A stretch of DNA of 64,000 nucleotides from Escherichia coli (GTDB lineage: Bacteria > Pseudomonadota > Gammaproteobacteria > Enterobacterales > Enterobacteriaceae): NCBI RefSeq assembly GCF_045037415.1, contig NZ_CP173438.1. One strand, written 5' to 3'. Below, piece after piece: positions 8,447-43,718 of this stretch. The notes under the pieces were generated by a model that worked only from the letters and a program-made list of their open reading frames with translations, was not told the origin of the DNA and did no database searches. Numbering within the stretch: position 1 is the stretch's first letter; every line of letters begins with the position of its first letter. The position numbers and the translations under genes are program-made.

Positions 8447-9757
8447 ATGGGTCAGGTTTTACCGCTGGTTACCCGCCAGGGCGATCGTATCGCCATTGTT
8501 AGCGGTTTACGTACGCCTTTTGCCCGACAGGCGACGGCTTTTCATGGCATTCCCGCGGTTGATTTAGGGAAGATGGTGGTAGGCGAACTGCTGGCACGCA
8601 CCGAGATCCCCGCTGAAGTGATTGAACAATTGGTCTTCGGTCAGGTTGTGCAAATGCCGGAAGCGCCCAACATTGCCCGTGAAATTGTTCTTGGCACTGG
8701 AATGAATGTGCATACTGATGCTTACAGCGTCAGCCGCGCTTGCGCCACCAGTTTTCAGGCGGTTGCGAACGTTGCCGAAAGCCTGATGGCGGGAACTATT
8801 CGAGCGGGGATTGCCGGTGGGGCAGATTCCTCTTCCGTATTGCCAATTGGCGTCAGTAAAAAACTGGCGCGCGTACTGGTTGATGTCAACAAAGCCCGCA
8901 CAATGAGCCAGCGCCTGAAACTCTTCTCTCGCCTGCGTTTGCGCGACTTAATGCCCGTACCGCCTGCGGTAGCAGAATATTCTACCGGCTTGCGGATGGG
9001 GGACACCGCAGAGCAAATGGCGAAAACCTACGGCATCACCCGAGAACAGCAAGATGCACTGGCGCACCGTTCGCATCAGCGTGCCGCTCAGGCGTGGTCA
9101 GAAGGTAAACTCAAAGAAGAGGTGATGACTGCCTTTATCCCTCCTTATAAACAACCGCTTGTCGAAGACAACAATATTCGCGGTAATTCCTCTCTTGCTG
9201 ATTACGCAAAGTTGCGTCCGGCGTTTGATCGTAAACACGGGACGGTAACGGCGGCGAACAGTACGCCGCTGACCGATGGCGCGGCAGCGGTGATCCTGAT
9301 GACTGAATCCCGGGCGAAAGAATTAGGGCTGGTACCGCTGGGCTATCTGCGCAGCTACGCATTTACTGCGATAGATGTCTGGCAGGACATGTTGCTCGGT
9401 CCAGCCTGGTCAACACCGCTGGCGCTGGAACGTGCCGGATTGACGATGGGCGATCTGACATTGATCGATATGCACGAAGCCTTTGCCGCCCAGACGCTGG
9501 CCAATATTCAGTTGCTGGGTAGCGAACGTTTTGCTCGCGACGTACTGGGGCGTGCACATGCCACTGGCGAAGTGGACGAGAGCAAATTTAACGTGCTTGG
9601 CGGTTCGATTGCTTACGGGCATCCCTTCGCAGCGACCGGCGCGCGGATGATTACCCAGACATTGCATGAACTTCGCCGTCGTGGCGGTGGATTTGGTTTA
9701 GTGACCGCCTGTGCTGCGGGTGGGCTTGGCGCAGCAATGGTTCTGGAGGCGGAATAA
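8447..9757 (+). CDS. fadI: 3-ketoacyl-CoA thiolase FadI (anaerobic beta-oxidation)
   Basis: 436 aa thiolase with active-site Cys context ([11 protein letters not shown]) and C-terminal GLGAAMVLE; 1-nt stop/start overlap with fadJ. Confidence 0.95.
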
Positions 9758-11901
9758 TGGAAATGGCATCAGCGTTTACTCTTAATGTTCGTCTGGACAA
9801 CATTGCTATCATCACCATCGACGTACCGGGTGAGAAAATGAATACCCTGAAGGCGGAATTTGCCTCGCAGGTACGCGCCATTATTAAGCAACTCCGTGAA
9901 AACAAAGAGTTGCGTGGCGTGGTGTTTGTCTCCGCGAAACCAGACAACTTCATTGCTGGCGCAGACATCAACATGATCGGCAACTGCAAAACGGCGCAAG
10001 AAGCGGAAGTACTGGCGCGGCAGGGGCAACAGTTAATGGCGGAGATTCATGCTTTGCCCATTCCGGTTATCGCGGCTATTCATGGCGCTTGCCTGGGCGG
10101 CGGGCTGGAGTTGGCGCTGGCGTGCCACGGTCGTGTTTGTACTGACGATCCTAAAACGGTGCTCGGTTTGCCTGAAGTACAACTTGGATTGTTACCCGGT
10201 TCAGGAGGTACCCAGCGTTTACCGCGCCTGATAGGTGTCAGCACAGCATTAGAGATGATCCTCACCGGAAAACAACTTCGGGCGAAACAGGCGGTAAAGC
10301 TGGGGTTGGTGGATGACGTCGTTCCGCACTCCATATTGCTGGAAGCCGCTGTTGAGCTGGCAAAGCAGGATCGCCCATCTTCACGCCCTCTACCTGTTCG
10401 CGAGCGTATTCTGGCGGGGCCGTTAGGTCGTGCGCTGCTGTTCAAAATGGTCGGCAAGAAAACAGAACACAAAACGCAAGGTAACTATCCGGCGACAGAA
10501 CGCATCCTGGAGGTTGTCGAAACGGGATTAGCGCAGGGGACCAGCAGTGGCTATGACGCCGAAGCTCGGGCGTTTGGTGAACTGGCGATGACGCCGCAAT
10601 CGCAGGCGCTGCGCAATATCTTTTTTGCCAGTACGGACGTGAAAAAAGATCCCGGCAGTGATGCGCCGCCTGCGCCATTAAACAGCGTGGGGATTCTAGG
10701 TGGTGGCTTGATGGGCGGCGGTATTGCTTATGTCACTGCTTGTAAAGCGGGGCTTCCGGTCAGAATTAAAGATATCAACCCGCAGGGCATAAATCATGCG
10801 CTGAAGTTCAGTTGGGATCAGCTTGAGGGCAAAGTTCGCCGTCGTCATCTCAAAGCCAGCGAACGTGACAAACAGCTGGCATTAATCTCCGGAACGACGG
10901 ACTATTGCGGCTTTGCCCATCGCGATCTGATTATTGAAGCGGTGTTTGAAAATCTCGAATTAAAACAACAGATGGTGGCGGAAGTGGAGCAAAATTGCGC
11001 TACTCATACCATCTTTGCTTCGAACACGTCATCTTTACCGATTGGCGATATCGCCGCTCACGCCACGCGACCTGAGCAAGTTATTGGCCTGCATTTCTTC
11101 AGTCCGGTGGAAAAAATGCCGCTGGTGGAGATTATTCCTCATGCGAGTACATCGGCGCAAACCATCGCCACCACGGTAAAACTGGCGAAAAAACAGGGCA
11201 AAATGCCAATTGTCGTGCGTGACAAAGCTGGGTTTTACGTCAATCGCATCTTAGCGCCTTACATCAATGAAGCTATCCGCATGTTGACCGAAGGCGAGCG
11301 TATTGAGCATATCGATGCCGCGCTAGTGAAATTTGGTTTTCCGGTAGGCCCAATCCAACTTTTGGATGAGGTAGGAATCGACACAGGGACTAAAATTATG
11401 CCTGTACTGGAAGCCGCTTATGGAGAACGTTTTAGCGCGTCTGCAAATGTTGTTTCTTCAATTTTGAACGACGATCGCAAAGGCAGAAAAAATGGTCGGG
11501 GTTTCTATCTTTATGGTCAGAAAGGGCGTAAAAGCAAAAAACAGGTCGATCCCGCCATTTACCCGCTCATTGGCGTACAAGGGCAGGGGCGACTCTCCGC
11601 ACCGCAGGTTGCTGAACGGTGTGTGATGTTGATGCTGAATGAAGCAGTACGTTGTCTGGACGAGCAGGTTATCCGTAGCGTGCGTGACGGGGATATTGGT
11701 GCGGTATTTGGCATTGGTTTTCCGCCATTTCTCGGTGGACCGTTCCGCTATATCGATTCTCTCGGCGCAGGCGAAGTGGTTGCAATAATGCAACGACTGG
11801 CCACGCAGTATGGTTCCCGTTTTACCCCTTGCGATCGTTTAGTTGAGATGAGCGAGCGTGGGGAAAGTTTTTGGAAAACAACTGCAACTGACCTGCAATA
11901 A
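9757..11901 (+). CDS. fadJ: Multifunctional enoyl-CoA hydratase / 3-hydroxyacyl-CoA dehydrogenase FadJ
   Basis: 714 aa; N-terminal crotonase fold, central Rossmann motif [13 protein letters not shown]. Confidence 0.95.
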
Positions 11902-12103
11902 GAAGGTCAAAGTTATATGAATCCGCGCTGAATGGCGGAGTGTTGCTCAAAATGTAAACGCATATTGACTATACTTACGCCATTGAGGTAAAAAACAGCG
12001 TTTCATTCGGTGAATGGATAAGGCACAATGCCGGCCACCGTTTTCTTTCTCTGGTTTCAGATGAAAGAAAACGGGCGAATCTGGTTAACAAAAGCGGTGC
12101 AAT

Positions 12104-42159: not shown

Positions 42160-42942
42160 ATGAAAAAACTGGTGCTATCGCTCTCTCTGGTTCTGGCCTT
42201 CTCCAGCGCAACTGCAGCATTTGCTGCGATTCCGCAAAACATCCGCATCGGTACCGATCCGACCTATGCGCCATTTGAATCAAAAAATTCACAAGGTGAA
42301 CTGGTTGGCTTCGATATCGATCTGGCCAAGGAGTTGTGCAAACGCATCAATACGCAATGTACGTTTGTCGAAAACCCACTGGATGCGTTAATCCCGTCCT
42401 TAAAAGCGAAGAAGATTGACGCCATCATGTCATCGCTTTCCATTACGGAAAAACGTCAGCAAGAAATAGCCTTCACCGACAAACTGTACGCAGCCGATTC
42501 TCGTCTGGTGGTGGCGAAAAATTCCGACATTCAGCCGACAGTCGAATCGCTGAAAGGCAAACGGGTAGGCGTATTGCAGGGCACCACCCAGGAGACGTTC
42601 GGTAACGAACACTGGGCACCAAAAGGCATTGAAATCGTTTCTTATCAGGGGCAGGACAACATTTATTCTGACCTGACTGCCGGACGTATTGATGCCGCGT
42701 TCCAGGATGAGGTCGCAGCCAGCGAAGGTTTCCTCAAACAACCCGTCGGTAAAGATTACAAATTCGGTGGCCCGTCTGTTAAAGATGAAAAACTGTTTGG
42801 CGTAGGGACCGGCATGGGCCTGCGTAAAGAAGATAACGAACTGCGCGAGGCACTGAACAAAGCCTTTGCCGAAATGCGCGCTGACGGTACTTACGAGAAA
42901 TTAGCGAAAAAGTACTTCGATTTTGATGTTTATGGTGGTTAA
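42160..42942 (+). CDS. hisJ: Histidine periplasmic binding protein HisJ
   Basis: 260 aa with signal peptide; first gene of hisJQMP. Confidence 0.9.
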
Positions 42943-43031
42943 TCGCCATCGGTGAAAGAAAGCCCGCTCCCTTCGGGTAACCGGAGGGAGACAAGAGGCG
43001 GTAATTCACCACACACGACAGGACAGGCAGC

Positions 43032-43718
43032 ATGTTGTATGGGTTTTCAAGTGTTATTTTACAGGGTGCGCTCGTCACGCTGGAGCTGGCTATCAGCTCT
43101 GTAGTGCTCGCTGTAATCATCGGTTTAATTGGCGCTGGCGGTAAGCTCTCACAAAATCGGCTTTCGGGCCTTATTTTCGAAGGGTACACCACGCTGATTC
43201 GAGGCGTGCCGGATTTAGTATTGATGCTGCTGATTTTCTACGGTTTGCAGATTGCGCTAAACACGGTGACGGAGGCGATGGGCGTCGGGCAGATTGATAT
43301 TGATCCGATGGTCGCAGGTATTATCACTCTCGGTTTTATCTACGGTGCTTATTTTACCGAAACGTTTCGTGGCGCGTTTATGGCAGTGCCGAAAGGACAT
43401 ATAGAGGCGGCGACGGCGTTCGGTTTTACTCGTGGGCAAGTGTTTCGGCGGATCATGTTTCCGGCGATGATGCGTTACGCCCTGCCAGGCATTGGCAACA
43501 ACTGGCAGGTGATCCTCAAATCTACCGCACTGGTTTCGTTACTCGGCCTGGAAGATGTGGTCAAAGCCACGCAGCTGGCAGGCAAAAGTACCTGGGAACC
43601 GTTCTATTTCGCTATCGTCTGCGGCGTGATTTATCTTGTTTTCACCACCGTTTCCAATGGTGTGCTGCTGTTCCTTGAGCGCCGCTACTCCGTGGGTGTG
43701 AAGAGGGCTGACCTGTGA
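43032..43718 (+). CDS. hisQ: Histidine ABC transporter permease HisQ
   Basis: 228-aa ABC permease. Confidence 0.9.
   Translation: MLYGFSSVILQGALVTLELAISSVVLAVIIGLIGAGGKLSQNRLSGLIFEGYTTLIRGVPDLVLMLLIFYGLQIALNTVTEAMGVGQIDIDPMVAGIITLGFIYGAYFTETFRGAFMAVPKGHIEAATAFGFTRGQVFRRIMFPAMMRYALPGIGNNWQVILKSTALVSLLGLEDVVKATQLAGKSTWEPFYFAIVCGVIYLVFTTVSNGVLLFLERRYSVGVKRADL

Follow-up and report, generated by a model that had tools for sequence, protein, structure and literature searches.

The trpB-trpA and trpE-trpD gene pairs are joined by 1-nt stop/start overlaps with the junction sequence TGATG, and each pair encodes subunits of one enzyme complex. Translational coupling at these trp junctions was established experimentally, which sets them apart from the junctions described here, although fadI/fadJ shares both the 1-nt overlap and the common complex. 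Native E. coli pairs with 4-nt overlaps were coupled in four of five reporter tests, and a context from -99 to +30 nt was enough (Huber 2019, PMC6728339). [quoted passage not shown] However, their coupling was proven with premature-stop reporters, whereas the junctions described here are known from sequence. The four pairs of that study are also of the 4-nt ATGA type, whereas four of our seven junctions have a spacing of -1 (TAATG). The bioB-bioF pair in the same study (Huber 2019, PMC6728339) is a 4-nt operon overlap without coupling, with bioF initiating de novo, and this arrangement could equally apply to mepA/yfcA/epmC. In K-12, as in 1,695 species, genes are most often spaced at -4 or -1, and heteromeric complexes are enriched for these two spacings (Huber 2023). 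Coupling was steeply distance-dependent and collapsed at spacings above about 20 nt (Huber 2023).

The window analyzed here is a stretch of 64,000 nt of the E. coli chromosome (contig NZ_CP173438.1), which runs from nuoA to argW in the orientation opposite to that of K-12. We compared two annotations: the PGAP one in RefSeq for a strain almost identical to this one (1 mismatch over 38.5 kb), and the curated one of K-12. The sequence-only reading of this DNA had listed seven stop/start overlaps of 1–4 nt, and all seven were found at identical coordinates in the two independent annotations, four with a spacing of -1 (TAATG) and three with a spacing of -4. The list was correct as far as it went, but an 11-nt overlap between folC and dedD had been left out. 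The eight junctions are as follows.

9755..9759, plus strand: fadI/fadJ, TAATG; fadI TAA at 9755-9757 and fadJ ATG at 9757-9759, a 1-nt overlap with shared base 9757
17720..17723, plus strand: yfcR/yfcQ, ATGA, 4-nt overlap; both genes encode minor fimbrial subunits
18196..18199, plus strand: yfcQ/yfcP, ATGA, 4-nt overlap in both PGAP and K-12
23204..23208, plus strand: mepA/yfcA, TAATG, 1-nt overlap (23206)
24013..24017, plus strand: yfcA/epmC, TAATG, 1-nt overlap (24015)
33128..33132, plus strand: usg/truA, TAATG, 1-nt overlap (33130)
37082..37092, plus strand: folC/dedD, with the dedD GTG start 11 nt inside folC
43715..43718, plus strand: hisQ/hisM, GTGA, 4-nt overlap; hisM starts with GTG

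The seven listed pairs are all co-directional with zero intergenic space, and at each of them, reading on from the nearest in-frame stop, the overlapping start is the earliest start codon in frame. Four further pairs that had gone unmentioned nearly abut: yfcP/yfcO (+1), aroC/mepA (+3), hisM/hisP (+7) and yfbU/hxpA (+10). Short overlaps of stop and start codons are textbook features of bacterial operons, and the seven pairs in themselves have little significance; they are a correct observation of a known and ordinary feature, all seven being present with the same spacings in the K-12 table of Huber 2023 (Table S2). That table counts hisQ/hisM and the yfc subunits among the complexes, and fadIJ, an operon whose products form a trifunctional enzyme complex, is scored "not". 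With the absence of a gap as the sole indication, we infer co-transcription of mepA-yfcA-epmC, of the yfc pairs and of hisQM. The genes pdxB-usg-truA-dedA are co-transcribed in Salmonella, as seen from an RT-PCR product, and the equal mRNA levels of usg and truA, and of folC and dedD, likewise point to shared transcripts.

The overlaps had been called recurrent, and this does not hold as a claim of enrichment. Spacings from -8 to +6 were found for 9 of 42 co-directional pairs in the window (21%) vs 707 of 2987 in K-12 (24%; binomial p=0.86), a frequency at the K-12 genome background, and the idea of an unusually overlap-rich window was dropped. The bare stop/start motif was likewise dropped as evidence because TG trails 4 of the 56 other stops in the window by chance, near the expected 1/16. 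The clustering at precisely -1 and -4 is not random: these two values account for 7 of the 12 pairs spaced between -11 and +10 (P ~3e-5 under uniform offsets).

SD motifs were present at seven of the eight junctions, folC/dedD included, with anti-SD duplex energies of -5.5 to -9.3 kcal/mol. They include GGAGG within fadI (9745-9749), AGGAG within usg (33114-33118), GAGGAG 5' of the dedD start (37071-37076) and AGAGGG 5' of the hisM start (43702-43707). No recognisable SD motif was found upstream of the mepA/yfcA start, where the anti-SD duplex energy was -3.1 kcal/mol. Coupling frequently, but not invariably, requires such a motif.

Comparison with up to five related genera separated conserved from drifting overlaps. 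The fadI/fadJ overlap is -1 or -4 in 5/5 genera and is kept in Shimwellia, Pantoea, Dickeya and Serratia. The usg/truA spacing is -1 in 5/5 Enterobacteriaceae genera, with the stop codon alternating between TAA and TGA and the AGGAG motif preserved; folC/dedD is spaced at -11 in 4/4 genera, including Salmonella, Leclercia and Citrobacter; and hisQ/hisM is spaced at -4 in 3/3 genera, identically in Leclercia and Citrobacter. For the latter three junctions, conservation is to be read as within Enterobacteriaceae, because a broader search for FolC homologues returned only close relatives in that family. The conserved junctions kept their overlap even where the stop codon or the kind of overlap changed, which argues for selection on abutment. 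HisQ and HisM both serve as permease subunits in one ABC transporter, and FadI and FadJ are two subunits of one complex. The hisQ/hisM pair is also typical of the COG0765/COG0765 HisM-type permease pairs, for which the median spacing over 1301 species is -0.4 and the lower value -4 (Huber 2023 Table S5).

In contrast, the mepA/yfcA overlap is not conserved: four other genera have spacings of +101, +8, +3 and +3. The yfcA/epmC spacing varies (-4, +19, -1, +64 and +16). From this sequence comparison, both overlaps look like incidental by-products of a shrinking intergenic gap. To our knowledge, no complex has been described for the products of mepA/yfcA, yfcA/epmC, usg/truA or folC/dedD. In this small sample, overlaps are stable in evolution where they join subunits of the same complex and drift where they join unrelated genes. 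Among the fimbrial genes, the yfcR/yfcQ overlap of -4 is shared by the divergent allele of K-12, and yfcS/yfcR overlaps by 1 nt in K-12 but is spaced at +16 in this strain. Across 378 species, FimA/FimA COG pairs are spaced at a median of +19.5, so the yfcR/Q/P overlaps are lineage-specific.

Start codons in the window are ATG for 52 of 60 genes and GTG for the other 8. Starts other than ATG had been reported for prmB, mnmC, pdxB, dedD, hxpA and yfbS, and all six are indeed GTG; the accompanying mention of TTG was mistaken, as no annotated gene in the window begins with it, and hisM and pta, which also start with GTG, had been missed. Besides dedD and hisM, the GTG starts are as follows.

20326..20328, plus strand: prmB, in the PGAP and K-12 annotations
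27000..27002, minus strand: mnmC, confirmed by an N-terminal peptide of 22 residues
30915..30917, plus strand: pdxB, confirmed by N-terminal peptide, Ribo-RET and INRI-seq
53223..53225, minus strand: pta, in the PGAP and K-12 annotations
55883..55885, plus strand: hxpA, 10 nt past the yfbU stop, a strong GAGGAGG motif lying between the two
56620..56622, plus strand: yfbS, from annotation

N-terminal proteomics had been proposed as a check of the start sites, and we used the TRAINSPOTTER N-terminomics table, which spans the whole region. The check succeeded for the GTG starts of dedD, pdxB and mnmC, and that of dedD is supported by Ribo-RET and INRI-seq as well; the table holds no entry or N-terminal peptide for the seven downstream proteins FadJ, YfcQ, YfcP, YfcA, EpmC, TruA and HisM. 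A search of the TetRP supplements for starts gave no matches. Start sites in this region are annotated reliably, and peptides confirm three of the GTG starts.

We consider the seven overlaps to be ordinary E. coli operon junctions at which termination-reinitiation is probably the mechanism at work. A ribosome ending the upstream gene would be released right atop the next start codon and could reinitiate there, and the SD-like motif within the final codons of the upstream gene may assist this step at seven of the eight overlaps. Translation of the downstream gene would then depend partly on that of the upstream gene, with an efficiency below 1. The spacings of -1 (four) and -4 (three) fall in the efficient range of about -4 to +3 nt, and folC/dedD at -11 falls outside the optimal spacing. 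Actual coupling is suggested most strongly for fadI/fadJ, hisQ/hisM, usg/truA and folC/dedD because the overlap is conserved there, and most weakly for mepA/yfcA and yfcA/epmC because their spacing drifts between genera. The claim of the sequence-only reading that the overlaps indicate coupling therefore stands in part: the -1/-4 geometry matches that of proven E. coli pairs, but an overlap alone is no indicator, as bioBF and translation efficiency (TE) ratios illustrate. The overlaps permit linked translation of neighbouring genes and make coupling plausible, which is less than proving it, and an overlap should not be taken to prove coupling or 1:1 expression.

Alternatively, the overlaps could reflect genome compaction and drift of starts and stops, with each downstream gene initiating de novo at its embedded SD motif independently of the upstream gene. 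We regard this as the less likely account. In its favour, the downstream genes have their own SD motifs at all junctions but one, bioBF overlaps and yet initiates de novo, and in a genome-wide analysis the TE ratios of 73 overlapping E. coli ORF pairs were as variable as those of 253 non-overlapping pairs. RNA folding was predicted for -99 to +30 nt around every start, and accessibility was taken as the unpaired probability of positions -15 to +3. The predicted accessibility of SD plus start was 0.39-0.48 for the overlapped starts, with a median of 0.46 vs 0.45 for the others (p=0.57), so these predictions give no sign of blocked de novo initiation. The folding energy was lower around the overlapped starts (p=0.014), probably owing to the presence of coding rather than intergenic sequence upstream. 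In expression data, the mRNA levels of usg and truA are equal and their TE values are 1.054 and 0.387, a truA/usg ratio of 0.37; likewise, folC and dedD have equal mRNA levels and dedD is translated at 0.44x the folC rate. Downstream translation at about 0.4x the upstream rate fits partial reinitiation and independent initiation equally. The range of -4 to +101 at mepA/yfcA and yfcA/epmC and the yfcS/yfcR difference between strains also speak for this account. Against it, fadI/fadJ, usg/truA, folC/dedD and hisQ/hisM kept their overlap while the stop codon or the kind of overlap changed. Independent initiation is further opposed by the coupling of four of the five native overlaps tested, and at mepA/yfcA it would be poor, as that junction is without a usable SD motif.

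It is very improbable that some of the overlaps are annotation artefacts, with the true start at a downstream in-frame codon and the genes in fact non-overlapping. In favour of this, fadJ has a second in-frame ATG at 9763, 6 nt on, that could use the same SD motif as an alternative start; such a start would give a spacing of +5, within the coupling range anyway. For six of the seven pairs, however, the next in-frame start lies 24–84 nt downstream, with weak or absent SD pairing (-2.4 to +1.2 kcal/mol). The yfcR and yfcE starts do differ between the K-12 and PGAP annotations, but at the overlaps the two annotations concur, and the fadJ, truA, hisM and dedD starts lie at the same aligned position in the gene calls of other genera. 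The INRI-seq supplements, which cover non-annotated sites only, contain peaks of initiation close to where hisM and fadJ start, and N-terminal peptides were found for 0 of the 7 downstream proteins; where peptides are available, namely at dedD, pdxB and mnmC, they confirm the annotated GTG start.

The usg/truA pair combines a conserved overlap with two products that share no known complex or pathway: Usg is a semialdehyde-dehydrogenase paralogue, and TruA is a tRNA pseudouridine synthase. That the conservation of this overlap reflects a real functional or physical link between them is a long shot. The two proteins might, for instance, need a fixed translation ratio of about 2.7:1. On a broader view, the difference between conserved and drifting overlaps might separate functional from incidental coupling.

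The window is a segment of the E. coli chromosome with one mismatch to strain 4/1-1 (NZ_CP023844.1) over the first 38.5 kb, and the RefSeq PGAP annotation of that strain was carried over to window coordinates as the gene map. All transferred coding sequences translate free of internal stops. Up to alaA, every CDS coordinate from 4/1-1 gives a clean translation, the exception being a 5-nt indel somewhere within the 919-nt alaA-lrhA intergenic region (60412-61330), which is among the largest non-coding gaps of the window. The K-12 counterpart extends from nuoA to argW (b2288-b2348) in reversed orientation, and gene content differs: rpnB (yfcI) is missing between hisP and yfcH (45213-45370), and yfdF between fadL and mlaA (6209-6269).

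The sequence-only reading had listed seven stop/start overlaps of 1 or 4 nt as indicating translational coupling. This observation was correct: all seven lie where it placed them in the transferred annotation, and the curated K-12 spacings are identical. It overlooked an 11-nt overlap at folC/dedD. Syntenic loci from eight genera were found using EpmC and FolC homologues and the junction sequences were then read; the spacings listed are predicted gene calls in 3-6 genera per junction.

Stop/start overlaps in the window: position, overlap sequence, and spacing (nt) across genera where compared
fadI/fadJ: 9757, TAATG; E. coli -1, Shimwellia -1, Pantoea -1, Dickeya -4, Serratia -1
yfcR/yfcQ: 17720-17723, ATGA
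yfcQ/yfcP: 18196-18199, ATGA
mepA/yfcA: 23206, TAATG; -1, +101, +8, +3, +3 (drifting)
yfcA/epmC: 24015, TAATG; -1, -4, +19, -1, +64, +16 (drifting)
usg/truA: 33130, TAATG in E. coli, TGATG in the others; -1 in 5/5 Enterobacteriaceae, AGGAG conserved
folC/dedD: 37082-37092; -11 in 4/4, start GTG in all
hisQ/hisM: 43715-43718, GTGA; -4 in 3/3

At all seven junctions first listed, no other in-frame start codon stands between the nearest in-frame upstream stop and the overlapping start. In six of them the next in-frame candidate is 24-84 nt further downstream, where Shine-Dalgarno (SD) pairing is poor; fadJ instead has another ATG at +6. The near-abutting pairs yfcP/yfcO (+1), aroC/mepA (+3), hisM/hisP (+7) and yfbU/hxpA (+10) had also gone unlisted. 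The convergent genes yfcJ (+) and flk (-) share four bases, CTAA, holding both stops (29821-29824); this overlap also occurs in Salmonella (L010 locus, 4034-4037), not in Leclercia.

Among co-directional pairs spaced -11 to +10, 7 of 12 are exactly -1 or -4 (P about 3e-5 under uniform offsets). At the other 56 stop codons of the window, TG comes next in 4 cases, about the 1/16 expected by chance, so the overlap motif alone is uninformative; the informative part of a junction is the long conserved gene that begins there. Spacings of -8 to +6 were not enriched in the window (9/42 co-directional pairs, 21%) relative to K-12 (707/2,987, 24%; binomial p=0.86). The commonest spacings across bacteria and archaea are -4 and -1, and all seven pairs appear with the same spacings in Table S2 of Huber et al. 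2023. The overlaps are an ordinary, already catalogued feature.

An SD-like motif (-5.5 to -9.3 kcal/mol) lies within the upstream gene at seven of the eight overlaps, mepA/yfcA being the sole one without it. The FadI C-terminus keeps an SD-like purine run, GGAGG in E. coli, Shimwellia, Pantoea and Dickeya and AGAGG in Serratia. FadI and FadJ form a trifunctional enzyme complex from a single operon, and the median spacing of HisM-type permease pairs across species is -0.4 (n=1301). The pattern of predicted spacings suggests that genes for subunits of one complex keep their overlap, as do usg/truA and folC/dedD, and that overlaps between unrelated neighbours drift. Predicted accessibility of the SD-plus-start region did not separate overlapped from other starts (0.46 vs 0.45, p=0.57).

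Coupling can at most reasonably be inferred at these junctions. Huber et al. 2019 (PMC6728339) assayed five native E. coli -4 pairs (hyfHI, astDB, ydbH/ynbE, menDH and bioBF) and found coupling in four, the exception, bioBF, using de novo initiation. Huber et al. 2023 reported that coupling is lost once spacing exceeds about 20 nt and that heteromeric complexes are 4.5-fold enriched in short spacings. However, relative translation efficiency (TE) was equally variable in 73 overlapping and 253 non-overlapping E. coli ORF pairs (Burkhardt et al. 2017), which counts against a simple reading of overlap as coupling. Supplementary file 1 of that study covers two overlapping pairs of the window: usg (TE 1.054, mRNA level 196) with truA (0.387, 198), and folC (0.912, 159) with dedD (0.401, 154). 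With column meanings deduced from column 5 = column 6 / column 7, the translation rate of truA and dedD is about 0.4 times that of the upstream gene on one transcript. Either partial reinitiation or independent initiation could give such a ratio; obligatory 1:1 output could not. Judged by junction conservation, coupling appears more likely at fadI/fadJ, usg/truA, folC/dedD and hisQ/hisM; at mepA/yfcA/epmC it is doubtful. Annotation, SD motifs, structure, TE and junction comparison gave no hint of a new mechanism.

Both yfc ATGA overlaps are retained in the divergent K-12 and window alleles and coincide with a conserved subunit C-terminus, Y-Q-stop (TAT/TAC CAA TGA). Pilin-pilin pairs across species have a median spacing of +19.5 (n=378), and yfcS/yfcR is spaced +16 here vs -1 in the K-12 annotation. 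The yfcOPQRSUV chaperone-usher fimbrial operon is complete in the window (13148-19549), with an 882-aa usher at 13795-16443; yfcU is a pseudogene in K-12. The subunit allele is divergent, YfcR/YfcQ/YfcP having 163/159/175 aa here vs 170/162/179 aa in K-12.

The six genes proposed to use GTG or TTG starts are all non-ATG, each with GTG; TTG is used by no annotated gene of the window. With hisM and pta also starting with GTG, the window has 52/60 ATG and 8/60 GTG starts, a composition near that usual for K-12 (roughly 83% ATG, 14% GTG and 3% TTG). N-terminomics data confirm that pdxB, mnmC and dedD start at GTG, the dedD start being the overlapping one, and contain no entries for fadJ, yfcQ, yfcP, yfcA, epmC, truA or hisM. 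Tandem GTGATG starts occur in aroC (21290-21295) and yfcE (48184-48189). Two AroC forms were detected by N-terminomics, the minor one, one residue longer, beginning at GTG; yfcE starts at GTG in the K-12 annotation (184 aa) vs ATG in PGAP (183 aa). Non-annotated initiation peaks at out-of-frame CTG codons are tabulated in an INRI-seq supplement near two junctions, at hisM +23 (near 43738; score 32.1, 4 replicates) and fadJ -14 (9743; score 5.8, 1 replicate). These peaks may be offset signal that stems from the annotated starts or from ribosomes bound to the SD.

The window begins within a P4-like satellite prophage or island inserted at tRNA-Arg, a site occupied in K-12 by the CPS-53 prophage.

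Elements of the argW island
1-4151: part of the island within the window
908-1789: sce7726-family cargo gene
1811-2761: sce7725-family cargo gene
2741-3916, minus strand: integrase
4077-4151, minus strand: argW tRNA-Arg, insertion site

In the neighbouring strain, ogr/Delta-like, DUF927, Icd-like and P2-capsid-like genes lie upstream. The sce7726-family protein matches the PADLOC model 'cll' (E=1.2e-18) and the sce7725-family protein matches no PADLOC model; the pair is possibly anti-phage cargo. The dedD-cvpA intergenic region, 440 nt here vs 258 nt in K-12, holds two tandem Rfam matches (37807-37877, 79.6 bits; 37898-37968, 72.7 bits) to naRNA4 (RF02564), a REP-derived nucleoid-associated RNA.
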